Below, one piece after another: positions 10,858 to 63,742 of a stretch of DNA of 64,000 bases. The position numbers and the translations under genes are program-made. Origin of the DNA: Candidatus Magasanikbacteria bacterium RIFOXYC2_FULL_42_28 (GTDB lineage Bacteria; Patescibacteriota; Patescibacteriia; Magasanikbacterales; GWA2-37-8). The DNA is taken from the NCBI GenBank assembly GCA_001784435.1, contig MFQZ01000009.1:11324-75323 (forward strand), read 5' to 3'. The stretch's first letter is position 1. Every line of letters starts with the position of its first letter. The notes below the pieces were generated by a model. It was not told the DNA's origin, ran no database searches, and worked only from the letters and a program-made list of their open reading frames with translations.

Positions 10858-10870
10858 ATAAAATTTCAAA

Positions 10871-42956: not shown

Positions 42957-43000
42957 AGTGTTTTGCATAACATTGGGGAACATATTATAATGAGCTTACT

Positions 43001-43963: not shown

Positions 43964-44066
43964 ATGTCAAATTTCCAATTTCCAATGTCAAATCAAAGCC
44001 AAAATGACAAATTTGACATTTTTATTTTGACATTGATTGGAAATTGGATATTTGGATTTTGAAATT
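43964..44066 (+). repeat. Family 2 long palindromic element
   Basis: It starts immediately after the holA TGA as AATGTCAAATTTCCAATTTCCAATGTCAAATCAAAGCC...TTTGACATTGATTGGAAATTGGATATTTGGATTTTGAAATT. Confidence 0.7.
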
Positions 44067-44101
44067 AGTAAAGTCAGACACATACAGAAGCTTGAGTTTA
44101 A

Positions 44102-47533: not shown

Positions 47534-49837
47534 ATGTTTCAGAAACAGTTGGCAAAATTTTTTGAGTTTGGGTCGTATATTTTATTGTTGTTATCAGTAT
47601 TGTTGGTGCCGATGGCCATTGATAACCAGCTGGTGAATTCGTATATCATACCAAAACAGTATGTATTAGGGGGATTGGTTTTGCTCGCGGCATTATTTTG
47701 GGCGGCGCGGGCGGTAGTAACTAAAAAGGTTTCTTATATTCAATCATTTGCCGACAAGCCCTTGATTTTATTTCTGTTAGTCGCTTTACTCACGGCAATT
47801 TTTTCTGCCAATCGTAGCAGTTCGTTTTTAGGAGTGGCTGATTATTATATTTTGAGTTTTGCGTCTTTTGTGGTTTCGGTGCTTTTTTATTTTTTAATTG
47901 TTAATCATTTCACCACGGCCAAACGTTGGCGTCTCGGCGTTGATTTGACGGTATTAGTTGGTGGTGTTTCGGCAACGTTATTTTTATTGCGCACTGTTTT
48001 TAATTTTGATGTTTTGTCTAAGTTGGGGATCTCGGCCTGGAATCTGATTGACCCAACTAACACCGCGTTTGGAATTTGGCTCGTTGCTATTTTTATGCTT
48101 TCGGCCGGTCAATTAATCAAGAAAAATTGTCCGGTCGGTCGGTCGTTGTTTAATTTTTTTGTGGCTTTGCTCGCGGTGGCGTGTCTCTTAACTTTAGGGT
48201 TTGATGTTTTGTGGTGGGTGTTGTTGATTGGTTTAGCGTTGCTGTTATTGTTAGGTGTAACATTTTTGCGTGAAGCGCGTTTGGGGTGGTTGACGGTTTT
48301 GTTTGCTCTGCTTGTTACCGATATAATTTTTATCACTTTTAATTCGCCTAAAGTTTTACAGACCAGCGTGCCGGTAGAAGTGGCGCTGGGCGCGCGACCA
48401 TCTTGGGATGTTACCAGCGCGACGCTTGGAGGCGGGGTAAAGAGTTTTCTTTTGGGTTCCGGTTTGGGTACTTTTGGCGTGGATTTTTCTCGTTATCGCA
48501 GTGTGGATTTTAACAACGACCCAGTCGCGTGGTCATTGCGTTTTAATCAACCGTTTAATACTTTATTGGCATTTTTGTCAGAGGGCGGGTTGTTGCTGGC
48601 GTTGGCGTTTGTTTTTGTGGTGGTCTTTTTCTTGGGGCATATTTTGTATGTCTGGCTTGGGCAAAGAGCGGAAGTAATGTTTGGCGGGTTGTCCGGAGAT
48701 TTGGGTTGGAAGTCCGGAGATTTGCGGTTTGAAATATTTTTAGTGTCTTTGGTTTGGGTGCTACTGACTATTTGCACGGGGTTTGCTTTTTTTGGACAAA
48801 GTTTGTGGTGGTTGTGGTGGTTTTTGCTTGGACTTTCCGCCAGCGGTTTGGGTTTTATTTATTCTAAGGCACATAATTTGCGCGAGTGGGAAATAGAAGA
48901 CGCGCCGCAATATAGCTTGTCCTTTTCTTTTATTTTAGTGGTATTGTCAGCCGGGATTGTAATGTCGGGGGTGATTGGGGCGCGAATGTATATGGCGGAA
49001 CGAGCGTACGCGGTCGCGGTTAGAGCCGATGATTTGGATACAGTAGAAATAAATTTAAAAAAGGCGATTAGTTTGCGTGATAATTACAGTGTTTATAATT
49101 TTTATATGGCGCGCTTGTTTTTGTCTCGGGCGGTTGAAGCCAGTAAAAATTCCAATCCAGACCCCGCGGTAATAAGCGCGCTTATGAGTAACGCGGTAAA
49201 TACCGCTCGTCGCGCTACCGATATCGCGCCGGCATCGGTGGGGTTGTGGGAAAATTTAGCCACGATGTATGAAAACGCGGCAGTGATAGTGCCGGAAGCG
49301 CGTGATTGGGCGGTGAAATCTTGGATGAAATGTACTGAATTAGAGCCCACCAACCCGGTCTTGTGGTTGCGACTGGGGAATAATTATTTGGCGAGCGGGA
49401 ATAACGAAGACGCGAAGAAAAGTTTTGAGGAGGCGATAAAATTAAAATCTGATTATGTCGTCGCGAGCATTTCTTTGTCGCAGATTTATGAGACCGAACA
49501 GAATTTTGAAAAGGCGGTTGAAATATACGAAAAAATTATGACCATAGCCGGCAATAACGCGGAGGTGGCTTATAACTATGGTCGTTTGTTGTATAACCGC
49601 AATGCCAAAGGTGATCGCGACGGGGCCGAACAGATTTGGCTAAAAGTGATTGAAGCGCAACCGAATTTCTCCAATGTTTTGTATAGTTTGGGGATGTTGT
49701 ATGAAACGCGTGGCGATAAATATAAAGCGTTAGATTATTATTATCAAGTAAAAGAATTAAATCCGGATAACAAAGATATCACAGCGAAGATTAAATCACT
49801 CGTCGGTGTACCGGTGGCTGAAGTCAATAAAAAATAA
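47534..49837 (+). CDS. O-antigen-ligase-like (Wzy_C) polytopic membrane protein with C-terminal TPR repeats
   Basis: ~12 TM helices with a large periplasmic loop are followed by TPR-like repeats (AEVAYNYGRLLYNRN...VLYSLGMLYETRGDKYKALDYYYQ). Confidence 0.6.
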   Translation: MFQKQLAKFFEFGSYILLLLSVLLVPMAIDNQLVNSYIIPKQYVLGGLVLLAALFWAARAVVTKKVSYIQSFADKPLILFLLVALLTAIFSANRSSSFLGVADYYILSFASFVVSVLFYFLIVNHFTTAKRWRLGVDLTVLVGGVSATLFLLRTVFNFDVLSKLGISAWNLIDPTNTAFGIWLVAIFMLSAGQLIKKNCPVGRSLFNFFVALLAVACLLTLGFDVLWWVLLIGLALLLLLGVTFLREARLGWLTVLFALLVTDIIFITFNSPKVLQTSVPVEVALGARPSWDVTSATLGGGVKSFLLGSGLGTFGVDFSRYRSVDFNNDPVAWSLRFNQPFNTLLAFLSEGGLLLALAFVFVVVFFLGHILYVWLGQRAEVMFGGLSGDLGWKSGDLRFEIFLVSLVWVLLTICTGFAFFGQSLWWLWWFLLGLSASGLGFIYSKAHNLREWEIEDAPQYSLSFSFILVVLSAGIVMSGVIGARMYMAERAYAVAVRADDLDTVEINLKKAISLRDNYSVYNFYMARLFLSRAVEASKNSNPDPAVISALMSNAVNTARRATDIAPASVGLWENLATMYENAAVIVPEARDWAVKSWMKCTELEPTNPVLWLRLGNNYLASGNNEDAKKSFEEAIKLKSDYVVASISLSQIYETEQNFEKAVEIYEKIMTIAGNNAEVAYNYGRLLYNRNAKGDRDGAEQIWLKVIEAQPNFSNVLYSLGMLYETRGDKYKALDYYYQVKELNPDNKDITAKIKSLVGVPVAEVNKK

Positions 49838-49850
49838 GCGGAATTAATTT

Positions 49851-50489
49851 ATGCGTAATTTTTTGGCAATAATTTTAATCGCGCTTGGGCTTGTGGTTGA
49901 CCCGGTTATTTTGCGCGCGGCGATGTCGTCCACGGATTATTATATTTACGCGGATGATTTTAGTATGGGCGGTGGTTTGAGTACCGGTGGCGAATATAGT
50001 TTACAAGATACGATTGGTCAATCGCCGGTCGACGCAATTAGTGGTGGTAGTTATGCTTTAAGCGCCGGGTATCAATTTCAAACGCTTGGAACAATCAGCA
50101 TGTCAATTTCCAGTTCGTCGTTGAGTTTGGGGACGTTGTCTGCCACGGGCGCGTCGTCAACAGCCGAGACCACGGTTACGGTTATTACTGATTCTGCCAG
50201 TGGGTATGTTTTATCGGTTTCAGATGTAAGTGGCGAAAGTTTAACGCCGGTGGCCGATGACGCGGTGGATGGTAATGGTGATTCCGAGGAGTATGGGTTG
50301 GCGGTGAGCGGGAGTGACGCGGATTTTGCGACCGATGAACCGGTGGCGACCAGTTTAACATTGGCTTCCAATTCTGAAATAGCCAATGGTAACGCGACCG
50401 TTTTGACTTTTAAGGCAATTCGCGGGGTGTCTTCTACCGCCGATACCTATAGCCAGAGTATTACACTTTCGGCAGTGGCGAATTTTTAA
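49851..50489 (+). CDS. Secreted Ser/Thr-rich hypothetical protein
   Basis: A signal peptide is present, and the sequence is Ser/Thr/Gly-rich with no Cys or Trp. Confidence 0.35.
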   Translation: MRNFLAIILIALGLVVDPVILRAAMSSTDYYIYADDFSMGGGLSTGGEYSLQDTIGQSPVDAISGGSYALSAGYQFQTLGTISMSISSSSLSLGTLSATGASSTAETTVTVITDSASGYVLSVSDVSGESLTPVADDAVDGNGDSEEYGLAVSGSDADFATDEPVATSLTLASNSEIANGNATVLTFKAIRGVSSTADTYSQSITLSAVANF

Positions 50490-50539
50490 TCCCGCTTCGC
50501 CTTTGGCTACGCAGGACAAGTGCCTGATTTAATAGTTTA

Positions 50540-51418
50540 ATGGTCATGAAAAAAATTTTCTTAATTATTTTACTGGGGATTTTGGCACCGACTTTGGGGG
50601 CGCGCGCCTTTTCTTTAAGTCCATTGAAATATATTTTTTCTGTGGAACGTGGTGAAAGCACGGTGATTACAGTAACTCTAAATAATTATGAATCCGGGGT
50701 GATTGCCTTGGAGCCGGCGGTGGTGGGGATGAAAACCGACAAAGCCGGTCGGCCGGTTTATGATAGCACAGCCGAGGTAATTGGTTGGGTAAAGTCGGAT
50801 TGGAATTTTATAAATTTAAAAGAAGGCCAAGGCCAAAAAGTTCATTTTTTAGTTACCGTTCCAGCTGGCGCGTATCCGGGTGATTATTATTTAGGTGTCG
50901 GCGCGAAACGCGTTGCCGGTGTCGGCGCGGTAAGTATCGGTGAGCAACTTTTGACAGTAGTGAATTTGAAAGTGGCTGGAACTGCGCGCGAGGATTTGGT
51001 GGTGAAAAAATTTGAAGTTAGTGGAAAATTTTTTGAAAAAAATAAAAAATTTAATTTGGAAATTGAAAATAAAGGCAATGTGGAAATGCCGATAAGCGCG
51101 GTTTTAAAAATAAGCGATTGGCGTGGGCGGATAATTTTGGAACAGCCGGTTGCGGTGGGAAATAAAATTTTGCCATTAGCATCGCGAGTAGCATCAACCG
51201 ATTTTGTCATTGCGAGGAGCGAAGCGACGCGGCAATCTATCGTGCCGGGTTTGTATCAAGTGGATTTAACAGTTGATTACGGTTTGACTAAACAAAAAAT
51301 TACCGCGGTGGAAAATTTTTGGTATGTGCCAACTTGGACGTTGGGTGTGTTGGTGGGGGTGATTATATTGGTGGGATTAATTATTTTTATTAAAAATAGG
51401 AAAAATTTTGGGTATTAA
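50540..51418 (+). CDS. DUF916/DUF3324-like cell-surface protein with a C-terminal TM anchor
   Basis: A signal peptide is followed by FSLSPLKYIFSVERGESTVITVTLNNYESGVIALEPAV (a DUF916-like start). The C-terminal TM ends in the basic tail KNRKNFGY. Confidence 0.4.
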   Translation: MVMKKIFLIILLGILAPTLGARAFSLSPLKYIFSVERGESTVITVTLNNYESGVIALEPAVVGMKTDKAGRPVYDSTAEVIGWVKSDWNFINLKEGQGQKVHFLVTVPAGAYPGDYYLGVGAKRVAGVGAVSIGEQLLTVVNLKVAGTAREDLVVKKFEVSGKFFEKNKKFNLEIENKGNVEMPISAVLKISDWRGRIILEQPVAVGNKILPLASRVASTDFVIARSEATRQSIVPGLYQVDLTVDYGLTKQKITAVENFWYVPTWTLGVLVGVIILVGLIIFIKNRKNFGY

Positions 51419-51427
51419 ATATTACTC

Positions 51428-54400
51428 ATGTTTAGTCCGAAAAAAATATTTTTTACAATTTTGACAGCAGTGCTGGCGGTTGGTTTATCAACCGCCTCTT
51501 TAGTATTAGCCGAAACGCAAACCGGGGGGTTGACAGTGGGGGTTACTATTGGGAGTGACGCTGTTTGTGGAAATGGCGCGGTTGAAGGCGATGAGGCCTG
51601 TGATGCCGGCAGTAGTAACGGGCTTTGTTCCGCGACTTGTAGTACCAGTTGTACGGTTAAGGCCACGACCGATTGTGGTGGCGGTGGCGATACCGACAAT
51701 TCTCCGACAATTTCCAATGTAACCACTACTCTGATTACGGTTAACAGCGCAACGGTGAGCTGGAACGCGACTGATAACAACGGAATTTCCACCTCCACTT
51801 TTGTTTATGGAATTGATATCAATTATGGCAGTAGTGCGACAATATCAGGTTCCAATCCGTATAGCGTAAATTTATTCGGTTTATCTGCCAACACGGTTTA
51901 TTATTTTCAAATTTCCGTTACTGATACTGGCAGTCATACCGTTGAATCTACTGGCAGTTTTACGACTTTATCAACGGCGGTAGGAGATACCATCCCTCCT
52001 AATATTTTTAATGTTATTGTTTCCCCAATCGGCGTAACTATGGCGACAATTTCATTTGATACCAACGAGTTGACGACAGCGCAAATTAAATTTAGTTCCG
52101 ACTTTTCTTATGCCAGCAGTACGGCCTTGGACGCGGTTTTGGCTACCACACACACAATTTCAGTGCTGGGTTTATGGCCGGATACTACCTATCATTTTCA
52201 AATTATCGCCAATGATGAACCGAATAATACCACCACCACTTTGGATGCTACCTTTACTACTTTGCCGGCGCCGGCCGTGGCCGATGTTGGTCATTTTGAA
52301 TTATCACCGTCATTTGAAGCAATTACTTTAAGTTGGGATTTGCCTGATTCTCCGTATTACGACCATATTATATTAAATCGTCAAGTTACCGGCGATCCGG
52401 CCACATTGGTAGAGTTGCCGGTTGATCCATTGGATAGTTTATTTATCGATTATGGGATTGATTTTAATATCAATTATACCTATACGATTTATGTCGTAGA
52501 TATTTTTGACCAACAAAGCCAAGGGGTATCGGTAAATGGCGAAGTTTTAGCATTTGGTTTAGAGGATTGTGATAACGGTGATGTTGACGATGATGGCGAT
52601 GGTGATGCTGATTGTGGTGATTTAGACTCTTGTTTCTCCCACCCCCACTGTGTAATTGAGGAAGTGTGTCATGATGAAAATGGTGATGGCTTGGAAAATT
52701 GTGATGATCCGAGTTGCGCTGGCAATGCGGTATGTTTAGCATTACACGAAGATGAGATTTGCGGTAACTTGTTTAATGATAACGGCGATGATTTTGAAAG
52801 TGATTGCGAAGACCCTGACTGTGCCGGATTCCCCGACCCGCAATGTGTCCTTTTTGATGTCGTGGCTTGTTCGGACCAGCAAGACAACGATGGCGACGGC
52901 CAAATTGATTTTGGCAATGACACCGGTTGCGTGAGCGCTGGTGATAATGACGAAAGTGACGACACGGTGCCGAGTTTTTTACAGTTGAATGTTAATGATA
53001 TTAAATTTTTTGCCGGTAATCGTCAAATTCCTTTGGCGCCGGTTAATGAAGTGGTGAGCAGTTTGGCTGGTAGTAACTTTACTGTGGCGGTCGCGCCGGC
53101 AATTACTCCCCAGGCAGTTACCTTGGTTTTGGAAGGGGCCACTTATCAGTTTGGCTTTAATGCGGTGGATAATATTTATTATTCAGATTTTACTTTGCCA
53201 TTTGTTGGTGTGCATAGCGCTTATTTAAATATTGATTATGGCAATGGCCAACAGGATAGCGTATTGATTAAAATAAATTGTTTGCCTTGGGGGCAAGTGG
53301 AAAGTGGTGGTGAGCTAATTGCGGGCGTGGAAATGTTTTTGCTTGATACCAATAATGAAAAAATATATTTGGGTGAATACGGTCAAACTAATCCGGTTTT
53401 GACGAGCGCGAGCGGGTTATATGGCTGGTCGGTATTGCCTGGTCACTACCTCGTGCGCGCAAACAAGGAGGGATTTTATGAACGGACTGTTCAAATTTAT
53501 GAGGTAAAAAATAATTCCATTAACGCGAATATTGATTTAATTAAAATGCCGACTAATTGGTTAGGGGCCATAGACGCGGCGCGGGGGTTGGCTCTACAAG
53601 CGGTAAATGATGTTGCCGATAATCCGGCAGTGGAGCAAGTCGCCCAGCAGGTAGTGGCGCCGGTGGCAGTAGGGGTGTCAGCGGTGGGGACGATTTTGGT
53701 GGTGCCGTGGTGGAATTTGTTGGCGCTGTTACGTTTCTTATTTTTACAACCGCTTTTACTTATCGGTCGGGGCAAACGCAAACAGTGGGGCATGGTTTAT
53801 AATTCTTTGAGCAAAATGCCAATTGATTTGGCAATCGTGCGTTTGTTTGACGCGACCACCGGCAAATTGTTGCGTTCGCGTGTTACCGACGAACACGGTC
53901 GTTATGCGTTTATTATGCCACCAGGCAAATATCGTCTGCAAGTGGTAAAAATGAATATGACTTTTCCCTCCGTGTTGTTAGCCGGTATTACGCACGACGG
54001 CAATCGGCCGGATATTTATCATGGTGAAGAAATTATTGTTAATGAAAAAAATGTTTTGATTACGGCCAATGTCCCGCTTGATCCGTCCGGAGATGGTAAA
54101 ACGCCGAAACGGATTTTGCGTGAGCGGTTTTGGCGTAAAGTGCAGTCGGGCGTGTCCGGTTTGGGTTTGGTTTTCACTTTGGTCGCGTTATATATTTCAC
54201 CGCGTTGGTATATGTGGGTTTTGGCCGGGGCGCATATTGGTTTGATGTTGGTATTTAGACGTTTGGCAAAACCAAAAACTGCCAAGGGCTGGGGAATTGT
54301 TTCCGATACTGTCACGAGTAAACCGGTGGGGCGCACGGTGGCGCGTTTGTTTGATACCAAATTTAATAAATTGGTGGCCACCGAAGTTACTGATAAACAC

Positions 54401-54562
54401 GGGCGGTATAACTTTTTGGCCGGTGATAATAAGTATTATGTTACCTATGAGCATGAAAATTACGAGACGACTAAGACCGATGTACTGGATTTAACCGGTA
54501 AAGAAGAGGACGCGATCGCGACAGACGCGAAGTTAAAAAAGAAAGATTTATCCACAGAGTAA
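51428..54562 (+). CDS. Large surface protein with a myxo-type Cys-rich repeat, fibronectin-III-like domains, an Asp/Cys-rich module, CarbopepD_reg-like domains and C-terminal TM segments
   Basis: CGNGAVEGDEACDAGSSNGLCSATCSTSC matches CxxGxxExxExCDxG...C. Three segments resemble Fn3 (VSWNATDNNG.., ISFDTNELTT.., LSWDLPDSPY..). The Asp/Cys module is DCDNGDVDDDGDGDADCGDLDSC. Three DEHGRY/DKHGRY beta-sandwich units are present. Confidence 0.55.
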   Translation: MFSPKKIFFTILTAVLAVGLSTASLVLAETQTGGLTVGVTIGSDAVCGNGAVEGDEACDAGSSNGLCSATCSTSCTVKATTDCGGGGDTDNSPTISNVTTTLITVNSATVSWNATDNNGISTSTFVYGIDINYGSSATISGSNPYSVNLFGLSANTVYYFQISVTDTGSHTVESTGSFTTLSTAVGDTIPPNIFNVIVSPIGVTMATISFDTNELTTAQIKFSSDFSYASSTALDAVLATTHTISVLGLWPDTTYHFQIIANDEPNNTTTTLDATFTTLPAPAVADVGHFELSPSFEAITLSWDLPDSPYYDHIILNRQVTGDPATLVELPVDPLDSLFIDYGIDFNINYTYTIYVVDIFDQQSQGVSVNGEVLAFGLEDCDNGDVDDDGDGDADCGDLDSCFSHPHCVIEEVCHDENGDGLENCDDPSCAGNAVCLALHEDEICGNLFNDNGDDFESDCEDPDCAGFPDPQCVLFDVVACSDQQDNDGDGQIDFGNDTGCVSAGDNDESDDTVPSFLQLNVNDIKFFAGNRQIPLAPVNEVVSSLAGSNFTVAVAPAITPQAVTLVLEGATYQFGFNAVDNIYYSDFTLPFVGVHSAYLNIDYGNGQQDSVLIKINCLPWGQVESGGELIAGVEMFLLDTNNEKIYLGEYGQTNPVLTSASGLYGWSVLPGHYLVRANKEGFYERTVQIYEVKNNSINANIDLIKMPTNWLGAIDAARGLALQAVNDVADNPAVEQVAQQVVAPVAVGVSAVGTILVVPWWNLLALLRFLFLQPLLLIGRGKRKQWGMVYNSLSKMPIDLAIVRLFDATTGKLLRSRVTDEHGRYAFIMPPGKYRLQVVKMNMTFPSVLLAGITHDGNRPDIYHGEEIIVNEKNVLITANVPLDPSGDGKTPKRILRERFWRKVQSGVSGLGLVFTLVALYISPRWYMWVLAGAHIGLMLVFRRLAKPKTAKGWGIVSDTVTSKPVGRTVARLFDTKFNKLVATEVTDKHGRYNFLAGDNKYYVTYEHENYETTKTDVLDLTGKEEDAIATDAKLKKKDLSTE

Positions 54563-54602: not shown

Positions 54603-57600
54603 GTGATTATGGCAATTATAGGATTGAAAAATTTATTAAAATTATCAAGCCGAATTTTTGTAATATCCGCCATATTTTTGTCCGCAATTTTTAGTTTATG
54701 GTTATGGCAAAATAGCGCGGTCGCGGCGATCGCGCCATCAGTAATTACTTACCAAGGTAAAGTATTAGTAAGCGGTTCACCAGCGTCATCTACTTTATCA
54801 ATGAAGTTTGTTTTGTATGACTCTTTAACTGGTGGCACTGCGCTCTATACTGCTTCCGGCACTTTGCCAACCACGAGCACAATTAGTATTACTCCTTCCA
54901 GTGGTATATTTAGTGTTGATCTTGGTGGTAGTGGTACAAACACGATTGATCCAACTATTTTTCAAAATAACAGTAGTGTATATTTAGAAGTAACCATCGG
55001 CAGTCAAACCCTTACCCCCCGAAAACAAATCACTGCCGCTCCTTATGCTTTCAACGCTAAATATCTAGATGGTCTCGCCACTTCATCATTCGCCAAACTT
55101 GGATCCAATGAAACGGTTACCGGCACTTGGACCTTTTCGGCAACCACGACTATGGTCACGACGACGGTGAGTGGGAGGTTAGGTATTGGGACGACCACGC
55201 CAGATCAAGCGTTGACAGTGGTGGGGAGTATTAGTAATCCGGTGAATGGGAATTCTGGGATAACAGAAATTGCGACTCTATCAACAGGTAACGACCCGTT
55301 TGCGATATTTGTCTCTGGTCGGTATGCTTATGTGGCCAATTCTGCTTCTAGCACCATGACTATAATTGATATTTCTAAACCAACCGTGCCGGTGCAGGTA
55401 GCAACAGTTTCTGTCGGAAATTCACCGCGTTCCGTATTTGTTTCTGGTCGTTATGCGTATGTTGGAAATTATGGACATGGCACTATATCCATCGTGGACG
55501 TGTCTAATCCATTTTCTCCTGTTGTTGTTGCTACCCAGCAGGATTTGCCGGGTATCCCATCTTCTATTTTTATCTCCGGTCGGTATTTGTATACCACCTT
55601 ACAAGGCCAAGATATCTTGGCGGTTGTTGATATATCAGATCCGCTGACTCCGGTTTTGGCTGCGGCTGTCACTGTCGGTGATTACCCACAATCAGTTTTT
55701 GTCTCCGGTCGTTATGCTTATGTGGCGAATAGAGCATCCGGCACCATTTCTGTGGTTGACATATCTAATCCTTTGTCTCCAGTCCAAATTGCCACGACCT
55801 CTGTTGGTGTTTGGCCTAGTTCTATAGCTGTCTCTGGTCGTTATGCTTATGTGGCCCATGATTCTGATTTGTTTATTTCTGTAGTGGACGTGTCTAACCC
55901 CGCTATCCCAGTTCAAGTGGCTACCACCTCTGTCGGTTTTGTACAGTCGTCCGTATTTGTTTCCGGTCGTTATGCGTATTTTAGCACGGGTATTACTGCA
56001 AATGATTTAGGCAATCTTTCGGTTGTGGATATTTTAAATCCGTTGGTACCGGTTTTAGTGGCAACTACGCCGGTTGGAAAAAATCCACAATCAGTTTTTG
56101 TCTCCGGTCGTTATGCTTATGTGGCTAATGCGGGGCCTCTTGCGGGCAATGGTGGGGAAAATACTATTTCCATCATCGATCTCTCCGGCGCCGAATTTTC
56201 CACCCTAATCGCCCACTCCGCCGAAGTCGGCCAAATCCAATCGCGCAATGACATCATCGCTCAAGGCATAGTTGGCGCCAACAGTTTACAAATCGGCAGT
56301 GGTGGTATCCTCTCTAACGGGCCCATCAGTATCACCGCCACCGATACCTATTCTTACTTCGGCGGTGGCATTACCGCCACCGGCACAGTAACCACTACTA
56401 ATTTGGCGGTCATCGGCAATGCCACTTTTGGTGGCACATTGTCGCTGGGCAATACCGACATCACCGGCAATCTTACTGTCTCCGGCAACGCTACTACCAC
56501 TGGTAATCAAGTAATATCCGGCACACTTAATATTTCCGGCACTTCCACTCTCGTTACCACCACTGCCACTGCCTTAACTGTCACTGGCACATCAACTTTA
56601 ACAAATATTTCATCCACTGGCATTTCCAATCTAGGCACTTTAAACGTTTCTGGCAGTACCATTCTTTCTGGCACATTAAATGTAACCGGCACATCAACTT
56701 TGGCCACTACCACCATTTCCAAATTAACCATTAGCAGTCAAGGTATTATTATTTCCAGTAGCACTCCGGTCGTTACTTCTTCCACTTTGTATAATGTTGG
56801 TGACACCCTTTATTGGAACGGCAACGCCTTATCAACCTCTACTGGTAGCGGTTTGCCGTCTAGTATTGATGGCCAAATTTTATTCTCCGCTGGTTCTACT
56901 TGGACCGCGACTTCGGCGATTAGTATTGTGAGTACAACTGGTAATGTTGGTATCGGTACCACCAACCCAGGTACTTTGCTCACAGTCCACAACACCAATA
57001 TCGCTTCGGCCACTTCTTCCACTTTAAAACAATCATATTTATCAGTTGACCAAATGGCCTTGTCACAATTAGAAGGTGGAGCATATTTTGGCCGAACAAA
57101 AATAAAAAATAATAATTGGGTAGTTCAAGTAGCGGATAATTTTGTTTTGAGTGAGGCACCGTTATCTATGAAGGGTTCGGCTGGTTCGGCTGATGGGGAA
57201 ATTTTAGCAATAGTTTTAGATGGCAATCAAATCGGGCTGTTTTCCGGTTTTGATGCTGATGTTCAATTGGTGGCTAGCGTTCAAAATTGGGAGGATATCG
57301 CGATGTCCGTTGATGGTAAAATTATGTCGGCTGTGATTGATAATGGCGGGATTCATCGTTCCATTGATTATGGCGCCACTTGGGCGACCTCATCCGCTTT
57401 GACAAAAAATTGGACAGGTATTGCAATGTCGGCCGATGGTAAATATCAAACGGCCGTGGCCACCGGTGATAGCGTTTATATTTCTGCTGATTTTGGTGTT
57501 ACCTGGATCGCCAAAGACAGCAGTCGCGCTTGGACCGGTGTGGCCATGTCATCGGACGGTAAATTACAAATTGCCACTGTTTCAAGCACCGGCAATATTT

Positions 57601-60600
57601 ATCTTTCGGTTGATTATGGTAGTACTTGGGTTGCTAAAGCCAGTGCCAATGATTGGGACAGCGTGGTTATGTCGGCTGATGGGCGGGTAGTATTGGCCGG
57701 AGTGAATAGTGGCAATCTTTATCTTTCCACTAATTACGGCTATTCTTGGACAACCACTACCGCTCCGACCGGAGCTTGGAGCGCGGTCGGTATGGATGGC
57801 GATGGTAAATATCAAGTGGCCGGAATTTCGGGTGGGGCGTTATATATATCTGGTGATTATGGTTCCACTTGGGCCACTTCAACGTCAGCTACGAGTGGGG
57901 TTTGGTATGATATTGACGTTACGGCCGATGGCGCTACGGTGGTTGCAACGGACAATGTCGCGGGGTATTATATCAATCAGGCCGATCAGTTTAGTTTAAA
58001 AAATATTGCGATTGGCGCGACTACGGTTGCCAGCGGTTTGGCGCTTGATGTTACCGGTGTTGGTTCTTTTTCCGGTAATTTATCGGTTGGTGGCGGTTTA
58101 ACTGTTACCGGTAATGCTACCAGCACTAATTTTATTGCGACCGGCAATGTTGGAATTGGCACCACAACACTTACCGAAAGATTAAATGTTAAAGGTAATA
58201 TTAATTTGGTCGGCAATCTTAATTTAGCAACCGGTACGATAAAATATTCCGGCAGTAATTTATTGTCAATTACCGGTGGCGCGTCATCAGTTGCTTTAGG
58301 GGTAAATGCCGGGCACAGTGCAACCGGCACAGGTAATGTGTTTGTTGGCAGTGGAGCCGGCCAAAACAATGATTCTGGTTATAACAATACTTTTATTGGT
58401 CTTAATGCCGGGCAGACTAATACCTCATCGGCCGGGAACACCTTTATCGGGGCGACCGCTGGCGCTAGCAACACATCTGGTAGTAGTAATGTCTTTGTTG
58501 GTTCGGGGGCGGGGGGGCTTAACACTACCGGTCTGGGTAATTCGTTTTTTGGTGCTCAAGTGGCCAGTGCCAATACCAGCGGTAGCATTAATTCGTTTTT
58601 TGGAGCCTACGCCGGCATTGCTAATACTGAAGGCGGCAATAATTCGTTTTTTGGAGCATACGCCGGCACTGCCAACATTACCGGTAATTATAATGTATTT
58701 ATTGGCGAATACGCCGGATCAAGTGTTACTTCCGGGTATTCCAATACTTTTTTGGGCGCGCGCTCTGGTTATTTGAATATTATTGGGGCCGGTAATGTGT
58801 TTTTAGGCAATCAAGCCGGTTATAACGAGACAGGCTCTAATAAATTATATATTGCCAATTCCAACACAGATTCGCCTTTGATTTATGGTGATTTTAGCGC
58901 GAGTGCCTTGACGATAAATGGAAGTTTAACGGTGTCATCAACTAACACTTCTACTTTTAATAGTAGCATTAATATCACCAGCGGATGTTTCGCGGTCGGT
59001 GGAAATTGTTTGTCAGACGGCACTACTCTTAATACCACCGTGCTTAATGTTAGTAGTACTCTTACCACCAACAGCACCACAATTTTGGTTGGTAATAATT
59101 ATTTTAATTTTACCGGGGCAAATATTGGTGGAAATGATTATGCGTCTTTATCTATCGGTAATGGCGCATCTTCCACTAACGGAGCGGTAGCAATTTGGGG
59201 TGATACCACGGTTGGGCCAAGATTTATGTTAGTGGCGACCACATCCGCGCCTTCTGCCACTGTTGGCGATAGTCCGATTTTTGTCGTTGATATGACTAGT
59301 GGTTATGCGCGCGTGGATATTGGCAGTACCGGTAACGCCAAATCAGGATTGTTAAGATTATATGATAACGCCGGTGTGAATAAAATTTATTTGAGCGCCA
59401 GTTCTACCGACGGCGATTCGTTTGTGTTGGATAATTTTTTAGTGGGCGCGAATTCCGAGAGTATTGCCAACACTGGTTTTGTTTTAACTAATAACAACAG
59501 TTTATACACCGAAGGCGATTTGGGTGTTAATGGTAATATTTATACCGACGGGGCAATTTATATTTCTGGCACTTCTACTTTGGCTATTACCACTATTACC
59601 GCCTTAACTGTATCTGGAGATGTAACTCTATCTACCTCCACTATCTTTTTAAATAATGTTGGCAGCTTCACCAGCTCAACCGCTTTTATTTTTAATGTTG
59701 CTAATTTTTCTTTGTCTGCCGCTGATAGATATATTTTGTCTTTACGTTCTAATAACGCACCAGTATTTTCCGTCTCCGCCAATGGTGATGTTAATACAGT
59801 AGGTAGTTTGCATGCGTTTTCAGCCACTGTTGGGGCCGATGGTAATCCCGGTGACTTGGCCGAACGCGTTGATATTGCCGTTGATGATATCGCCGAAGCT
59901 GGCGATGTGGTCGTGGTTGATCCAAATAATATTGATACCTATCGCCGTAGTAGTGAGGCATATAGTCAATCCGTGGCTGGAGTAATTTCTACCGCTCCAA
60001 CCATCGTAGTTGGTGATGGTAAAACTGATTACACCGCTGTCATGGCTATGATTGGTCGCGTGCCAGTTAAAATTTCCAGTGAAAACGGCGCGATTAAGCG
60101 TGGTGATTTATTAGTGTCGGCATCGCTTCCCGGTTACGCGATGAAATATAATCCGGAAGATGATAATGGTTTGAAGATGGTGGGTATTGTGGGTGTGGCT
60201 TTGGATAGTTTTGCCGATGTCGGCGGAACCGGGAAAATTATGGCTTTAATCCGCACCGGTTGGGTCAATTCGCGTGGGCAAACTATCAATGATATTAAGA
60301 GTGACTTAGAAACTTTGGCGCAGAGTCAAGGTGTGAATATTAATTCTAATCCAAGTGATTTGACAGTGGAGCCAAGTGGCGGTAATTTGGTGTATAGCAG
60401 TGGTAATTTGAATTTACATGGTGGCAGTTTGTTGGGCGTAGCGGCGATTTCCGGCTTGAATGGTCGGTGGGAAATAAACGCTGATGGTTGGTTTATCACG
60501 CGCGTTGACACCACGAGTGGGCAAAAAGAAATGTATGGTTTGCAATCACCGGCCGCGGAATTTGTATTTTCCAGCTCATCACAGTTGATGAATGGTGAAG

Positions 60601-61106
60601 CGCGGGTTACTTTTGATGTTGCCGCGCAGGAAATTATTGATACGGACGCGATATTAAAAGTAAGTGTAACTTTAACATCGGGCGAAGCAATGGGTGTGTA
60701 TGTAACTGATAAAAATGCGACTGGTTTTACGGTAAAAGAAGTAGGGAATGGCACAAGTAACGCGACTTTTGATTGGGTGGTGGTGGTAAAGCAAAAAGAT
60801 CCCAATACTCCGGTAAGCGCGCCGGTTAGTGAACCAATAATAGACACGCCCGTTTCCTCTGGCGATTCTAGCGGTTCGTCAACCACCTTAACCACCGAAA
60901 CGCCACTGGTTATTGAATCAACCACAACCTCAACTACTGAGCCAGCGCCAGCACCGGTTGAAATCCTAACCCAGGAACCGACTGCCACAGTTGAGCCAAC
61001 ACCAGAAACAACGCCTGTGCCTGAACCAGCGCCGGTAGTTGTTGAGCCCACCCCTGAACCAGCGCCAGCACCGGTTGAAATTCCATCCTCGGAACCAGCA
61101 CCTTGA
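54603..61106 (+). CDS. Giant (2167 aa) cell-surface protein with LVIVD-like propeller repeats, BNR/Asp-box repeats, NxFxGxxAG 14-residue repeats and a Pro/Thr/Glu-rich tail
   Basis: After a signal/TM segment there are ~9 units of VFVSGRYAYVAN...ISVVDISNP (LVIVD-like). Six SxDxGxTW Asp-boxes follow (SIDYGATW, SADFGVTW, SVDYGSTW, STNYGYSW, SGDYGSTW). There are ~12 tandem repeats of the form NVFVGSGAG.., NTFIGLNAG.., NSFFGAYAG... The C-terminus has PAPAPVE/EPTPE repeats. Confidence 0.6.
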   Translation: MIMAIIGLKNLLKLSSRIFVISAIFLSAIFSLWLWQNSAVAAIAPSVITYQGKVLVSGSPASSTLSMKFVLYDSLTGGTALYTASGTLPTTSTISITPSSGIFSVDLGGSGTNTIDPTIFQNNSSVYLEVTIGSQTLTPRKQITAAPYAFNAKYLDGLATSSFAKLGSNETVTGTWTFSATTTMVTTTVSGRLGIGTTTPDQALTVVGSISNPVNGNSGITEIATLSTGNDPFAIFVSGRYAYVANSASSTMTIIDISKPTVPVQVATVSVGNSPRSVFVSGRYAYVGNYGHGTISIVDVSNPFSPVVVATQQDLPGIPSSIFISGRYLYTTLQGQDILAVVDISDPLTPVLAAAVTVGDYPQSVFVSGRYAYVANRASGTISVVDISNPLSPVQIATTSVGVWPSSIAVSGRYAYVAHDSDLFISVVDVSNPAIPVQVATTSVGFVQSSVFVSGRYAYFSTGITANDLGNLSVVDILNPLVPVLVATTPVGKNPQSVFVSGRYAYVANAGPLAGNGGENTISIIDLSGAEFSTLIAHSAEVGQIQSRNDIIAQGIVGANSLQIGSGGILSNGPISITATDTYSYFGGGITATGTVTTTNLAVIGNATFGGTLSLGNTDITGNLTVSGNATTTGNQVISGTLNISGTSTLVTTTATALTVTGTSTLTNISSTGISNLGTLNVSGSTILSGTLNVTGTSTLATTTISKLTISSQGIIISSSTPVVTSSTLYNVGDTLYWNGNALSTSTGSGLPSSIDGQILFSAGSTWTATSAISIVSTTGNVGIGTTNPGTLLTVHNTNIASATSSTLKQSYLSVDQMALSQLEGGAYFGRTKIKNNNWVVQVADNFVLSEAPLSMKGSAGSADGEILAIVLDGNQIGLFSGFDADVQLVASVQNWEDIAMSVDGKIMSAVIDNGGIHRSIDYGATWATSSALTKNWTGIAMSADGKYQTAVATGDSVYISADFGVTWIAKDSSRAWTGVAMSSDGKLQIATVSSTGNIYLSVDYGSTWVAKASANDWDSVVMSADGRVVLAGVNSGNLYLSTNYGYSWTTTTAPTGAWSAVGMDGDGKYQVAGISGGALYISGDYGSTWATSTSATSGVWYDIDVTADGATVVATDNVAGYYINQADQFSLKNIAIGATTVASGLALDVTGVGSFSGNLSVGGGLTVTGNATSTNFIATGNVGIGTTTLTERLNVKGNINLVGNLNLATGTIKYSGSNLLSITGGASSVALGVNAGHSATGTGNVFVGSGAGQNNDSGYNNTFIGLNAGQTNTSSAGNTFIGATAGASNTSGSSNVFVGSGAGGLNTTGLGNSFFGAQVASANTSGSINSFFGAYAGIANTEGGNNSFFGAYAGTANITGNYNVFIGEYAGSSVTSGYSNTFLGARSGYLNIIGAGNVFLGNQAGYNETGSNKLYIANSNTDSPLIYGDFSASALTINGSLTVSSTNTSTFNSSINITSGCFAVGGNCLSDGTTLNTTVLNVSSTLTTNSTTILVGNNYFNFTGANIGGNDYASLSIGNGASSTNGAVAIWGDTTVGPRFMLVATTSAPSATVGDSPIFVVDMTSGYARVDIGSTGNAKSGLLRLYDNAGVNKIYLSASSTDGDSFVLDNFLVGANSESIANTGFVLTNNNSLYTEGDLGVNGNIYTDGAIYISGTSTLAITTITALTVSGDVTLSTSTIFLNNVGSFTSSTAFIFNVANFSLSAADRYILSLRSNNAPVFSVSANGDVNTVGSLHAFSATVGADGNPGDLAERVDIAVDDIAEAGDVVVVDPNNIDTYRRSSEAYSQSVAGVISTAPTIVVGDGKTDYTAVMAMIGRVPVKISSENGAIKRGDLLVSASLPGYAMKYNPEDDNGLKMVGIVGVALDSFADVGGTGKIMALIRTGWVNSRGQTINDIKSDLETLAQSQGVNINSNPSDLTVEPSGGNLVYSSGNLNLHGGSLLGVAAISGLNGRWEINADGWFITRVDTTSGQKEMYGLQSPAAEFVFSSSSQLMNGEARVTFDVAAQEIIDTDAILKVSVTLTSGEAMGVYVTDKNATGFTVKEVGNGTSNATFDWVVVVKQKDPNTPVSAPVSEPIIDTPVSSGDSSGSSTTLTTETPLVIESTTTSTTEPAPAPVEILTQEPTATVEPTPETTPVPEPAPVVVEPTPEPAPAPVEIPSSEPAP

Positions 61107-61255: not shown

Positions 61256-62407
61256 ATGTCTTTTTCCATCGGGATTGTCGGATTGCCAAATGTCGGTAAA
61301 TCAACTTTATTTAATGCTTTGACGCGCAGTAAGCAAGCGGACGCTGCCAATTATCCTTTTTGCACTATTGATCCGAATGTGGGCGTAGTCGCGGTTCCGG
61401 ATGAGCGGTTAGCAAAGTTATCCGAAATTTCTAAATCAAAAAAAATTATCCCAACGGTGATTGAATTTGTGGATATTGCCGGTTTGGTAAAAGGCGCGAG
61501 CGAAGGCGAGGGTTTGGGTAATAAATTTTTATCACATATTCGCGAAGTGGACGCCATCGCGCAAGTAGTGCGCGCGTTTTCGGATAGTAATGTTATTCAT
61601 GTGAATAATAAAGTGGACCCAAAGAATGATAGCGAGGTGATTAATTTAGAATTGGCGTTGGCGGATTTACAAGTTGTTACCAAAAGATTAAGCACTGCCA
61701 AAAAAGATACCAAAGGTTCGGTGGCAAAAGACAAAGAAAAAGAAATTGAATTATTGACAAAAATTAATGCCCAGCTCGAGGCCGGCAAACCGGCGCGCGC
61801 GTTAGAATACAATGATGATGAAAAAATAATTTTAAAAAAATTACAGCTGTTGACAGCCAAACCGATGTTGTATGTGGTGAATACTGACGAAGGGGGCGGA
61901 ATTTCACCAATTGTTACTCCGACGACGAAGGAGGAATCTCTATCCCAATTGATTGCCAATGGAGATCCCTCGTCCCGACTAAGTCGGGAGTCCTCGCTCG
62001 GGATGACAACGCAAATAAACGTTTGTGCCAAGTTGGAAGCGGAATTGGCAGATTTGAGTGTGGAGGAAGCCAAAGAATATTTAAAAACTGCTGGCATTAC
62101 CGAAACCGGTTTGGATAAATTAGTTGTCGCCAGTTACAAATTATTGGATTTAATAACTTTTCTAACTTCGGGCGAACCGGAAACGCGCGCTTGGACGGTA
62201 AAAAATGGCGCGAGGGCCCCGGAAGCGGCCGGAGTCATTCACACGGATTTTATCAAAGGTTTTATTAAAGCCGATGTTTGTGACTGGCAAGATTTTGTTA
62301 CGCACCACGGTTGGTCAAAAATAAAAGAAACCGGAAAACTCCGATTAGAGGGAAAAGATTATGTCGTGAGAGATGGAGATGTTGTGTATTTCCATGTTAG
62401 TACCTGA
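61256..62407 (+). CDS. ychF: Ribosome-binding ATPase YchF (Obg family) with a repeat-derived insertion
   Basis: IGIVGLPNVGKSTLFNALT, NYPFCTIDPN and the C-terminal TGS domain (VVRDGDVVYFH). It is 383 aa, against ~363 aa typical for YchF. Confidence 0.85.
   Translation: MSFSIGIVGLPNVGKSTLFNALTRSKQADAANYPFCTIDPNVGVVAVPDERLAKLSEISKSKKIIPTVIEFVDIAGLVKGASEGEGLGNKFLSHIREVDAIAQVVRAFSDSNVIHVNNKVDPKNDSEVINLELALADLQVVTKRLSTAKKDTKGSVAKDKEKEIELLTKINAQLEAGKPARALEYNDDEKIILKKLQLLTAKPMLYVVNTDEGGGISPIVTPTTKEESLSQLIANGDPSSRLSRESSLGMTTQINVCAKLEAELADLSVEEAKEYLKTAGITETGLDKLVVASYKLLDLITFLTSGEPETRAWTVKNGARAPEAAGVIHTDFIKGFIKADVCDWQDFVTHHGWSKIKETGKLRLEGKDYVVRDGDVVYFHVST
61911..62009 (+). mobile_element. Family 1 repeat, full copy inserted in-frame in ychF
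   Basis: TTGTTACTCCGACGACGAAGGAGGAATCTCTATCCCAATTGATTGCCAATGGAGATCCCTCGTCCCGACTAAGTCGGGAGTCCTCGCTCGGGATGACAA is 96% identical to the 10871 copy and translates as IVTPTTKEESLSQLIANGDPSSRLSRESSLGMT. Confidence 0.65.
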
Positions 62408-62440
62408 TTATTCTTATGGAGTTAGAATAAGTATTAATAA

Positions 62441-62549
62441 TTTCAAAATCTAAATTTCCAATGTCAAATCAATGTCAAAATCTTAATGTCAAATTTAGTA
62501 TTTGAGCTTTGGATTTGATTTGACATTGGAAATTGGAAATTTGACATTT
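62441..62549 (+). repeat. Family 2 long palindromic element (variant)
   Basis: TTTCAAAATCTAAATTTCCAATGTCAAATCAATGTCAAAATC...GATTTGATTTGACATTGGAAATTGGAAATTTGACATTTCG, located between convergent ychF and the methyltransferase. Confidence 0.6.
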
Positions 62550-62551: not shown

Positions 62552-63742
62552 CTATACTTTTTTGAACCTCCAAATCTCCCGCCCTACTCGCTGTCCCGGC
62601 CGGCCATACAACAAGTATGGCTTTTTTTGTTGAAGCGAGACCGTTTTAAATCCTAAATTATTTATTTCCGATTCGCAATTAATCGTGATCCACTGCCCGC
62701 GTGAAAAAAAACGGGGAATAATAAAAATTACTGTGCCATCTTTTTTTAACAATTTTGTAAACGCGCGAAAAGCATTTAAATACAAGGTTTTTAATTCGCC
62801 AACTTGTAATCGTAACTCGCTTTCGCTTTCACGTCCGGTTAATGGTTTTCCTAAATATGATTCGGTGATGATTGTGTCAATTGAATGGGGTTTTATTTTT
62901 TTCTCTAAATTATCAATATCAATATTGTAAATTGGAAATTGAGAATTGATTGGAAATTTGAAATTTGAAATTGGAAATTGCCGTGCCGTCCACTCCACAT
63001 TTTTTCGTGTATCCGCTATCGCTTTTTCAGATATATCACTCCCGATTAAATTTTTATAACCCAAAATCATCGCCTCGGTCAAAATTGTCCCCGAACCACA
63101 AAATGGATCGAGCAAGGTCGCGTCCAAATCTGCTTGCGCCAAATTTATCATCATCATCGCCAACTTCGGCGGCAACATGCCCGAAAAATCATCGCGTCCC
63201 GGTCGTCCAAAGTCGCGCGCGCCTAATTCTTCAAACGGTTGAATGGCAATTGTTTTGGCCAAAGCAAAACCGTCAGCAGTTTTGGTGATTAAAAACTCCC
63301 GTCCTTTAGTAGTGAGTTGGTTGTGAAATACGGTTGCCGAAGATAACTGGTTATGTTCATCGCTCGGCACATAACGCACTGACAGGCCATTCTTTTTCAA
63401 TTCTTTTTTTATGTCCAAGGCAAATGGCTTAACGCCAATTTGTCCGGACTTATCATATAAACTGATGCCAAAATGGATTTTGCCGGTAATGGTTTGCAGT
63501 TCTGCAATAATTTTTTCTTTTAATTCGTTTTCTGTTAATTCCGAGCCGACCTCTTCGGCGATCTTAATTGTTCCGCCTAAACGTTTAATTAAATCGGTTT
63601 CCACGGCCGTATTAATTTTTAAAATATTTTCCGCCAAAAATTTAACCGCTTCATTTGGTAATTTTAAAACCGTGGTGATTTCCGCCGTGGATATTTCCGG
63701 TTCTCGTCCTAAAACAAACCAAGTGAAATTATTTTTTTTCAT
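62552..63742 (-). CDS. THUMP-domain RNA methyltransferase (Trm14/RlmL/TrmN-like, class I SAM MTase)
   Basis: The N-terminal THUMP-like region is followed by SAM motif I LLDPFCGSGTIL and the catalytic region. The ATG is at 63742. Confidence 0.65.
   Translation of the reverse strand: MKKNNFTWFVLGREPEISTAEITTVLKLPNEAVKFLAENILKINTAVETDLIKRLGGTIKIAEEVGSELTENELKEKIIAELQTITGKIHFGISLYDKSGQIGVKPFALDIKKELKKNGLSVRYVPSDEHNQLSSATVFHNQLTTKGREFLITKTADGFALAKTIAIQPFEELGARDFGRPGRDDFSGMLPPKLAMMMINLAQADLDATLLDPFCGSGTILTEAMILGYKNLIGSDISEKAIADTRKNVEWTARQFPISNFKFPINSQFPIYNIDIDNLEKKIKPHSIDTIITESYLGKPLTGRESESELRLQVGELKTLYLNAFRAFTKLLKKDGTVIFIIPRFFSRGQWITINCESEINNLGFKTVSLQQKKPYLLYGRPGQRVGREIWRFKKV
62925..62990. repeat. 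Family 2 repeat fragment (GGAAATTGGAAATT units) embedded in-frame in the methyltransferase gene
   Basis: AAATTGGAAATTGAGAATTGATTGGAAATTTGAAATTTGAAATTGGAAATT encodes QFPISNFKFPINSQFPIYN on the minus strand. Confidence 0.45.

Follow-up and report, generated by a model that had tools for sequence, protein, structure and literature searches.

A giant mosaic protein of a Magasanikbacteria-like bacterium, probably a tail-fibre-like surface adhesin, with a diverged phi29 gp12-type domain in its C-terminal module

We describe here a giant gene on the forward strand (positions 54603-61106) of a 64,000-nucleotide stretch of Candidatus (Ca.) Magasanikbacteria contig MFQZ01000009.1, hereafter the window. 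According to the open reading frame (ORF) listing it is an uninterrupted frame of 2,167 codons with a GTG start, its coordinates being exactly those of an earlier prediction made from the letters alone (hereafter the original prediction). An ATG at 54609, two codons further in, is an alternative start, and an identical protein (P0001) from JGI metagenome data, encoded on a 249,793-bp contig, has its start called 25 codons later for a length of 2,142 residues. We propose, with a probability of about 60%, that its product is a secreted surface adhesin which resembles a phage tail fibre, is probably homotrimeric and belongs to an ultrasmall, Ca. Magasanikbacteria-like member of the Patescibacteria. 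The C-terminal module on which this proposal largely turns is presented first, followed by the exchangeable passenger domains, the protein family and the gene neighbourhood.

Results

Organization of the giant protein

The protein is built from a series of consecutive segments, given below with their positions in the window, strand, residue numbers and, in brackets, sequence landmarks or the evidence by which they were delimited.

54603..54728, +, signal peptide or signal anchor, residues 1-42 (MIMAIIGLKNLLKLSSR, hydrophobic IFVISAIFLSAIFSLWLW, then QNSAVAA/IAPS)
54729..55097, +, family-conserved N-terminal domain A, residues 43-165, ITYQGKV...PYAFNAKYLDG (segment mapping on homologues)
55293..56222, +, seven-bladed LVIVD beta-propeller, residues 231-540 (Pfam PF08309, GRY[AL]Y motifs, autocorrelation, DNA repeats D3/D4)
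56235..57002, +, Thr/Ser/Gly-rich spacer, residues 545-800 (composition, autocorrelation)
57171..57992, +, BNR/Asp-box beta-propeller with 6-7 blades of 41 residues, residues 857-1130 (motif positions, spacing)
58284..58844, +, 10-11 tandem 17-residue repeats N-x-F-x-G-x-x-A-G-x-x-N-T-x-G-x-x, residues 1228-1414
58833..58937, +, conserved neck GSNKLYIANSNTDSPLIYGDFSASALTINGSL capping the predicted solenoid, residues 1411-1445 (alignment A2)
58980..59621, +, variable T/G/S/N-rich region F, residues 1460-1673 (homologue mapping, composition)
59622..59855, +, conserved pre-cleavage beta-strand segment, AFIFN..YILSLRSNNAPVFSVSANGDV...GNPG, residues 1674-1751 (alignment A1)
59853..59867, +, putative autoproteolytic site G1751/D1752-L-A-E1755 (alignment with phi29 gp12 S691/D692-F-A-E695)
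59856..60266, +, G block, a phi29 gp12-type (Peptidase_G2-like) beta-tulip and putative autochaperone, residues 1752-1888
60267..60797, +, helical linker (about residues 1895-1908) and beta-sandwich domain H (about residues 1956-2064) (AlphaFold2 model)
60798..61106, +, Pro/Thr/Glu/Ser-rich low-complexity tail, residues 2066-2167, and stop codon (composition)

The order of domains given by the original prediction is borne out by this layout, as is its Pro/Thr/Glu-rich tail (P 24%, T 19%, E 13%), in which neither a hydrophobic anchor nor an LPXTG motif is present; a comparable low-complexity tail of 16-183 residues ends all 12 of the 12 family members inspected. At the opposite end, a basic n-region, an 18-residue hydrophobic core and an A-x-A-like site (SAVAA/IAPS), read by eye, give the N terminus the appearance of a Sec-type signal or signal anchor. 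Domain A has no match in Pfam or among Protein Data Bank (PDB) sequences; a metacaspase, its sole match at E = 0.19, was judged to be noise and rejected. The concern that the repeats might be low-complexity artefacts, raised together with the original prediction, can be set aside, since their periodicities and E-values are far beyond chance. At the DNA level, a search for a diversity-generating or template/variable repeat pair returned, within the gene, solely its own blade repeats and 51-nt repeats, and a promoter and terminator scan gave counts at or below shuffled expectation.

A diverged gp12-type domain in the C-terminal module

The family-conserved C-terminal module (residues 1674-2065) begins with the segment 1674-1751, which features three strands in the model described below and would, we infer, form a trimeric prism; the conserved block that follows starts at ...GDLAERVDIAVDD. 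We modelled the module as a monomer with AlphaFold2, using a 23-sequence alignment (A1), and obtained two confident domains, at model residues ~80-210 (1753-1883) and ~283-391 (1956-2064), with a helix between them. When the model was searched with Foldseek, the crystal structure 3gqh of the phi29 gp12 C-terminal fragment was returned with a probability of 1.00, along with Pam3 cement (E = 7e-4). In this model the G block has the beta-tulip fold, superimposable on the gp12 fragment.

The match extends to the register of the gp12 cut. In our translation of gp12, DFAEYFE begins at residue 692, and the 163 residues from D692 to K854 equal the chain length of 3gqh_A, so that the crystallised fragment is consistent with a start at D692. 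This is in line with a cut of gp12 at S691/D692, which Xiang et al. 2009 reportedly described along with an ATP-dependent release. Both BLASTP and hhalign place G-D1752-L-A-E1755 of the giant protein on S-D692-F-A-E695 of gp12, with VAGVISTAPTIVVG aligned to IIGVISETAGFVLG.

Relatives of the giant protein provide the connecting evidence. A second, upstream copy of the G block is found in 51 of 94 relatives, the giant protein itself having none. Among eleven such copies that we aligned, eight carry DYAEY and the rest DFAEY or DLAEY, and the three that were scanned, from P0048, P0096 and P0105, exceed the PF11962 cutoff of 25 bits with scores of 33.3, 26.4 and 31.4, respectively. Compared as a group by hhalign, the upstream copies match gp12 with 83% probability (E = 9e-6) and the G block with 99.4% (E = 4e-21), which makes the transitive route from the G block through the upstream copies to gp12 a strong one, next to a direct comparison that lacks significance (see below). 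Furthermore, P-G-D-L-A-E-x-V-D-I is the best-conserved stretch of the 390-column module, and among 276 G-block domains drawn from 201 proteins, 245 retain DxAE. From the Foldseek match, the cut-site alignment, the transitive profiles and the conservation of DxAE together, we conclude that residues 1752-1888 are a diverged member of the gp12-D4/Peptidase_G2 superfamily with an intact putative catalytic motif.

An intramolecular-chaperone-like block had been suspected here in the original prediction, with a search for Peptidase_S74 at the C terminus as the proposed check. The suspicion holds in kind, the family being phi29 gp12/Peptidase_G2 and not Peptidase_S74: PF13884 is matched neither by the full-length protein (E <= 1) nor by any of seven segments searched separately (E <= 10), and a Peptidase_S74 domain at the C terminus is ruled out by these searches. 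Nor does the block form the very C terminus, some 280 residues coming after it.

Several results weigh against the assignment and against the cleavage that it implies. The G block has no Pfam match at E <= 10, and neither a phmmer search of PDB sequences nor hmmsearch with the A1 profile returned anything; at E <= 1, the giant protein and all 23 C-terminal modules of the alignment are without a match to PF11962. The mean predicted local distance difference test (pLDDT) score of the monomer model is 68.8. Compared directly by hhalign, the G block and gp12 fall short of significance (probability 0.4%, E = 0.15), the register being unchanged, and the whole C-terminal module compared with full-length gp12 gave a spurious match. 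Finally, ~280 conserved residues follow the G block, whereas the corresponding domain is terminal in gp12 and in an Ottowia protein (see below), and so long an extension beyond the cut is odd if the post-cut part is discarded.

These ~280 residues are the main unexplained feature of the protein and the basis of a different account of the same fibre-like adhesin, in which the G block would be a permanent, non-cleaving knob or trimerisation domain and the beta-sandwich a distal receptor-binding tip, by analogy with the knob-and-foot domains of R-type pyocin and phage tail fibres. Domain H itself is a beta-sandwich of ~110 residues set between the helix and the Pro/Thr/Glu-rich tail; the C-terminal model matches the C-terminal regions of R1 and R2 pyocin fibres as well as H-type lectins, and on this model domain H is possibly H-type-lectin-like or tail-fibre-foot-like. 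These matches fit a permanent knob. So does the fact that 67 of the 120 best homologues retain H and tail beyond the G block, and so do the two tandem G blocks of 51 of the 94 relatives, which would be expected of structural repeats. Beta-tulips are, moreover, general trimeric interaction modules, mostly non-proteolytic (PMC7602432; 10.1101/216911). Against it, the most conserved stretch of the module lies exactly at the gp12 cut position, the profiles link the family to the Pfam 'IMC autoproteolytic cleavage domain', and one divergent member lacks the motif while keeping the fold-level sequence, which suggests that the motif is under separate selection. We regard a permanent knob as a serious minority option, well behind the overall model proposed above; to self-cleavage at G1751/D1752 itself we give roughly even odds.

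Two propellers as candidate binding scaffolds

The first propeller is securely identified: PF08309 (LVIVD) matches seven stretches with E = 1.1e-36 and a score of 124.4 bits, the cutoff being 20.2. Seven GRY[AL]Y motifs are found at residues 239-502, 43-47 residues apart, with an autocorrelation peak at lag 43, so that the LVIVD propeller foreseen by the original prediction is confirmed by Pfam while its count of ~9 blades is reduced to seven by both motifs and Pfam stretches. The following spacer (T 22%, S 14%, G 14%) has the Thr/Gly-rich composition that had been noted, shows a weak 6/12/23-residue periodicity (xGxLxVSGxxTL) and matches no family; it is presumed to be a fibrous stalk.

In the second propeller we find five Asp-boxes, four strict ones plus STNYGYSW, at residues 920, 961, 1002, 1042 and 1083, 40-41 residues apart, and autocorrelation peaks at lag 41. 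Motifs and spacing thus agree with a BNR propeller, with five boxes in place of the six first counted and with the Pfam models BNR (PF02012, 18.7 bits) and BNR_6 (18.1 bits) both under their cutoff of 27; failure of these models is weak evidence, because they describe short motifs.

A motif G-(R/N)-(L/V)-G-I-G-T-T-(T/N)-(P/L)-...-L-(T/N)-V occurs three times in the protein, at residues 191-208, 780-795 and 1182-1198 (window positions about 55173-55226, 56940-56987 and 58146-58196), each copy lying 30-80 residues before a globular module (the LVIVD propeller, the BNR propeller and the 17-residue solenoid, respectively), and may be a cassette junction or recombination point.

Propellers of these types also raise the prospect of catalysis, namely that the protein is a secreted multi-domain polymer-degrading enzyme with a lactonase- or selenium-binding-like LVIVD domain and a sialidase- or glycoside-hydrolase-like BNR domain. 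Relatives are publicly annotated as 'beta-propeller fold lactonase family protein', the BNR region is partially similar to the NCBIfam glycosylhydrolase F510_1955 (NF045728; E = 4.4e-10), and phi29 gp12 and the K1F tailspike both pair enzyme domains with C-terminal chaperones (PMC3357383). The scores nevertheless fall short, at 39 bits against a cutoff of 175 for F510_1955 and 25 against 34 for SBP56, with Lactonase unreported in the Pfam scan, and the sialidase RIP motif is found nowhere in the giant protein. LVIVD and Asp-box repeats are structural motifs, common in non-enzymatic surface proteins, and propeller modules come and go from one family member to the next, as binding cassettes would. 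We therefore consider an enzyme improbable, and from their sequences we read both propellers as binding scaffolds.

A tail-fibre-type solenoid and neck as an internal cassette

Downstream of the propellers, ten clean copies of the NxFxG repeat (residues 1245-1414) are preceded by a degenerate one (residue 1228). Their period is 17 residues, residue autocorrelation reaching 0.47 at lags 17, 34 and 51 over a background of 0.11, and Tandem Repeats Finder reports the corresponding 51-nt DNA repeat (D8) at 58538-58675. The NxFxGxxAG repeats of the original prediction are therefore present, as 10-11 copies of 17 residues instead of ~12 copies of 14. They are predicted to form a single-chain beta-solenoid with one turn per repeat. 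A search of PDB sequences with the solenoid profile gave noise only.

Residues 1211-1471 retrieved 1,849 matches, the best 120 of which are proteins of ~290-460 residues with 35-56% identity across 54-100% of the query. They come from Bacteroidota, Omnitrophota, Deltaproteobacteria, Delongbacteria and other groups. Among these 120, 'tail fiber domain-containing protein' and 'trimeric autotransporter adhesin' are frequent annotations, and a terminal Peptidase_S74 is likewise frequent. Stand-alone homologues such as P0122 and P0168 share both the 17-residue repeat and the neck GSNKLYIxNSxTxTPLIYGDF with the giant protein, and in alignment A2 the neck columns K204, L205, Y206, I207, N209, P215, L216, I217, G219 and F221 are invariant or nearly so. 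This comparison of sequences shows residues 1228-1445 to be homologous to 'tail fiber domain-containing' proteins.

The stand-alone proteins, ~350-450 residues long, carry NTFxGxxAG repeats, the neck NKLYIxNSxTxTPLIYGDF and a C-terminal Peptidase_S74 (PF13884), and are 42-56% identical to residues 1228-1445, with which they share the 17-residue period as well as the invariant G, N and F columns. The difference lies in the context: in the stand-alone homologues the neck lies immediately before the Ser-Lys region of Peptidase_S74, whereas in the giant protein no S74 follows and the module is an internal cassette, the chaperone role appearing to be taken over by the G2-type domain 300 residues downstream. 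What lies between is in part region F, which matches no family and is common only to the paralogue P0002, at 90% identity.

The original prediction likened the repeats to those of YadA heads or phage tail fibres. The YadA head repeat PF05658 has no match in the giant protein, and the period is 17, not 14. Trimeric autotransporter adhesins (YadA, UspA1, BpaC) differ further by their outer-membrane beta-barrel anchor, which is absent here. As a member of the Patescibacteria, the organism presumably has no outer membrane.

A family with fixed ends and exchangeable middle cassettes

A whole-protein search gave 869 matches, nearly all of them giant proteins of 1,200-3,800 residues. We mapped eleven query segments on the best 120 and counted a segment as present at >= 60% coverage. 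The N-terminal domain (residues 43-165) was found in 83/120, near the N terminus in most of these (typically subject residues ~40-165), C-terminal block G in 93/120 and the last globular domain H in 67/120, along with the LVIVD propeller in 110/120. Far fewer carry the BNR propeller (7/120), the 17-residue repeats (10/120) or the neck (4/120). The C-terminal module always stops 16-183 residues short of the protein end and is followed by a low-complexity tail. Its position and the segment counts therefore argue, from sequence comparison, for a family of hundreds of giant proteins of Magasanikbacteria in which the ends are fixed and the cassettes of the middle exchangeable. The original prediction held that such a mosaic is not a standard annotated architecture, and if this is read as a claim of uniqueness it fails, the frame of N-domain, G and H recurring at the frequencies just given. 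At least one other protein, P0052, also combines LVIVD, BNR, 17-residue repeats and the G block.

The giant protein is itself composite. Residues 3-795 are collinear with P0004 at 53% identity and residues 761-1212 match the P0004 BNR region at 41%, while residues 1676-2167 are 83% identical to P0002 and 50% to P0004; the genes of P0004 and P0002 lie next to each other in tandem within the syntenic locus of a related genome. By these identities the window's protein is shown to be a mosaic of two tandem paralogues, with a P0004-like front and a P0002-like end.

Searched against clusters at 50% identity (1.84 billion representatives), the profile of the C-terminal module retrieves 531 clusters at E <= 1e-30, 15,198 at <= 1e-10 and 26,654 at <= 1e-3. 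The complete module is concentrated in Magasanikbacteria. To Ca. Magasanikbacteria belong also the best-named homologues, as well as the species-representative genome that is closest, RIFOXYD2_FULL_41_14 being 88% identical in the C-terminal module. The G block alone is also found in Proteobacteria and in metagenome-assembled genomes (MAGs) labelled Bipolaricaulota, Thermotogae, Saccharibacteria and Bacteroidetes. In the betaproteobacterium Ottowia sp. VDI28 (L081, NZ_CP149820.1 4204064-4206456), a 462-residue Gly-rich secreted protein ends in a G block with D-V-A-E, from which it follows that the diverged gp12-type domain serves as C-terminal module of cellular secreted proteins beyond the candidate phyla radiation (CPR).

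We note that in many MAGs titled 'uncultured Gammaproteobacteria bacterium' (TPA_asm; loci L006-L066) the C-terminal module of Magasanikbacteria type is present in full, with 45-62% identity, and that these titles are probably wrong taxonomic labels. Family relatives bear Peptidase_S74, Peptidase_G2 and YadA_head domains, with ten YadA_head stretches in P0031. In P0031 (residues 1906-1962) and P0005 (residues 2867-2930), a mid-protein Peptidase_S74 lies ~115-180 residues upstream of the G block, placing two different putative self-cleaving chaperones in series on one chain.

A cellular, syntenic five-gene cluster

The giant gene is the fifth and last member of a cluster, the rest of which is as follows.

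47534..54562, +, four co-oriented upstream genes of the five-gene cluster (Pfam, sequences)

In order, these encode a 767-residue polytopic membrane protein with C-terminal tetratricopeptide repeats (TPRs), a 212-residue secreted protein, a 292-residue secreted protein with a C-terminal transmembrane anchor and a 1,044-residue fn3/CarboxypepD_reg protein. Pfam identifies the flanking genes as ychF, an RMKL-type methyltransferase gene, rmuC and holA; the G+C fraction of the window is about 0.36-0.48. Two Magasanikbacteria-like contigs (L002 and L004) feature the same order, namely rmuC, the TPR protein, proteins of ~210, ~285 and ~1,020-1,080 residues, the giant protein or proteins, ychF and the methyltransferase. 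The giant gene is present in one or two copies, two tandem ones being found in one of the two contigs and in the RIFOXYD2 MAG.

Given phage-type modules such as the G2-like chaperone and the S74-kin solenoid, and a weak PHROGs match (a single one, on the LVIVD region, to a family of unknown function), one might suspect the tail-fibre gene of a prophage or tailocin instead of a cellular surface protein. Yet no phage structural, lysis or integration gene was found among the ten neighbouring ORFs scanned, which comprise housekeeping genes (ychF, rmuC, holA, the methyltransferase) and genes of surface-type proteins; the locus is syntenic in related genomes, and the protein begins with a Sec-type N-terminal signal, which virion fibres lack. 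The housekeeping neighbours, the synteny and the absence of phage genes from the scanned neighbours identify a cellular locus and not a prophage. We accordingly treat prophage origin as ruled out by gene context and synteny, the residual chance of a phage or tailocin fibre gene being very slight.

Other repeats were observed in the window. A 101-nt palindromic repeat with TTGTCAT...ATGACAA termini lies at 61909-62009, in frame within ychF (61256-62407), with further copies at 10869-10969 and 9203-9303; it folds into a long hairpin (free energy, dG, -38.9 kcal/mol; z = -3.7). The ychF copy is identical to the intergenic copy 10869-10969 at 95 of 101 positions and adds ~34 residues (PIVTPTTKEESLSQLIANGDPSSRLSRESSLGMT) to YchF, orthologues of two related genomes being without them. 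It resembles an in-frame insertion of a miniature inverted-repeat transposable element (MITE), similar in this respect to Rickettsia palindromic elements. An AT-rich intergenic repeat (…TTTGACATTGATTTGACATTGGAAATTTGGATTTTGAAATT) of ~62-111 nt is dispersed over the window, with 5-6 copies of which at least some lie where genes end (7049-7173, 12117-12227, 19341-19451, 43957-44067, 62439-62549 and also 62911-62972). Lastly, the 83-nt segment 38908-38990 is 90% identical to 43000-43082, where the holA-like gene (43001-43963) has its 5' end, and lies ~4 kb upstream of it; this upstream copy directly follows an ORF ending at 38905 and, in the one frame checked, is interrupted by a stop codon.

Discussion

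The comparison with phi29 gp12 (D4 autochaperone, PF11962, PDB 3gqh/3suc) is central to our reading of the giant protein as a probable tail-fibre-like adhesin. In gp12 the C-terminal domain is an auto-chaperone that is required for trimer assembly and is removed by cleavage once folding is complete (PMC3357383). The domain is built of beta-tulips in tandem, and earlier work points out that it is homologous to 'some bacterial adhesion proteins' (10.1101/216911, citing Xiang et al.). The two proteins share [S/G]-D-x-A-E at the start of the domain, at the gp12 cut site, common motifs downstream of it, the placement of the domain after a long beta-rich fibre, and the transitive link through paralogues that pass PF11962. 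They differ in that the giant protein is cellular and, as read from its sequence, Sec-exported whereas gp12 is a virion protein; in that it has diverged too far for a direct match to PF11962 or gp12; in its passenger, propellers and a thin solenoid in place of a pectate-lyase-type beta-helix; and in the beta-sandwich and Pro/Thr-rich tail that follow the G block where the gp12 domain ends the protein. Beta-tulip cement proteins (lambda gpD, P74-26 gp87, TW1 gp56, HFTV1 and the phi29 gp8.5 base), which decorate phage capsids, bind capsids and have neither the context of a DxAE cleavage motif nor a fibre.

A propeller inside a trimeric tailspike with a C-terminal chaperone has a precedent in the K1F endosialidase (endoNF), which combines one propeller per chain, a trimeric fibre, a beta-helical stalk and a cleaved C-terminal chaperone (PMC3357383). 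The giant protein would share these features, its trimeric state and cleavage being predicted. The K1F protein uses Peptidase_S74, with its Ser-Lys dyad, and a catalytic sialidase, whereas here a G2-type domain and a RIP-less BNR propeller are found.

These data suggest a model where the C-terminal beta-tulip domains would join three chains into a trimer and align the fibrous parts upstream of them in register, as in gp12. Self-cleavage at G1751/D1752 would then yield a mature fibre of ~1,700 residues and a C-terminal fragment of 416 residues comprising chaperone, beta-sandwich and Pro/Thr tail, and would expose a new N terminus, DLAERVDIAVDD..., for which DLAERVDIAVDDIAEAGDVVVVDPNNIDTYR is the matching semi-tryptic peptide. 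The mature fibre would display the two propellers and the solenoid, whose ligands may be glycans or proteins of a host or partner cell, and recombination among tandem paralogues may exchange the cassettes and thereby change specificity.

Part of this picture was already known, namely gp12-type chaperones in bacterial adhesins and, in general, modular giant surface proteins in CPR bacteria; the protein and its family are in public databases but poorly annotated. Since kin of the gp12 chaperone in bacterial adhesins have been published (10.1101/216911), our results are an extension and not a new principle. What is new is the recognition of the family's universal C-terminal module as a cryptic G2-type autochaperone, missed by current Pfam and followed by an extra, possibly lectin-like domain, which serves as a frame for cassettes of propeller and solenoid type within a syntenic cluster of five genes. 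Giant surface proteins of Patescibacteria are mostly annotated as 'hypothetical' or, misleadingly, as 'lactonase family', and the C-terminal profile, with its 15,198 clusters at E <= 1e-10, is a better annotation handle, as PF11962 misses the subfamily. A cryptic gp12-type autochaperone with an intact cleavage motif also gives a testable maturation mechanism and a predicted trimer.

Patescibacteria in culture are without exception attached to another microbe, and several adhesins are needed for their epibiotic growth (PMC10633639, PMC12206443). The giant protein and its relatives indicate that building blocks of tail fibres, i.e. G2 and S74 chaperones, solenoid with neck, and propellers, are reused as exchangeable cassettes in cellular adhesins. 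More speculatively, and in our view with rather low probability, the whole five-gene cluster could form a dedicated host-attachment appendage derived from phage tail fibres, matured by G2 autoproteolysis and adjusted in specificity by cassette swapping, its released fragment having a function of its own. If so, this fragment of beta-tulip and lectin-like domain might serve, for example, as an anchor to the cell's own wall or as a soluble lectin, and the five-gene locus would be a determinant of episymbiont host range.

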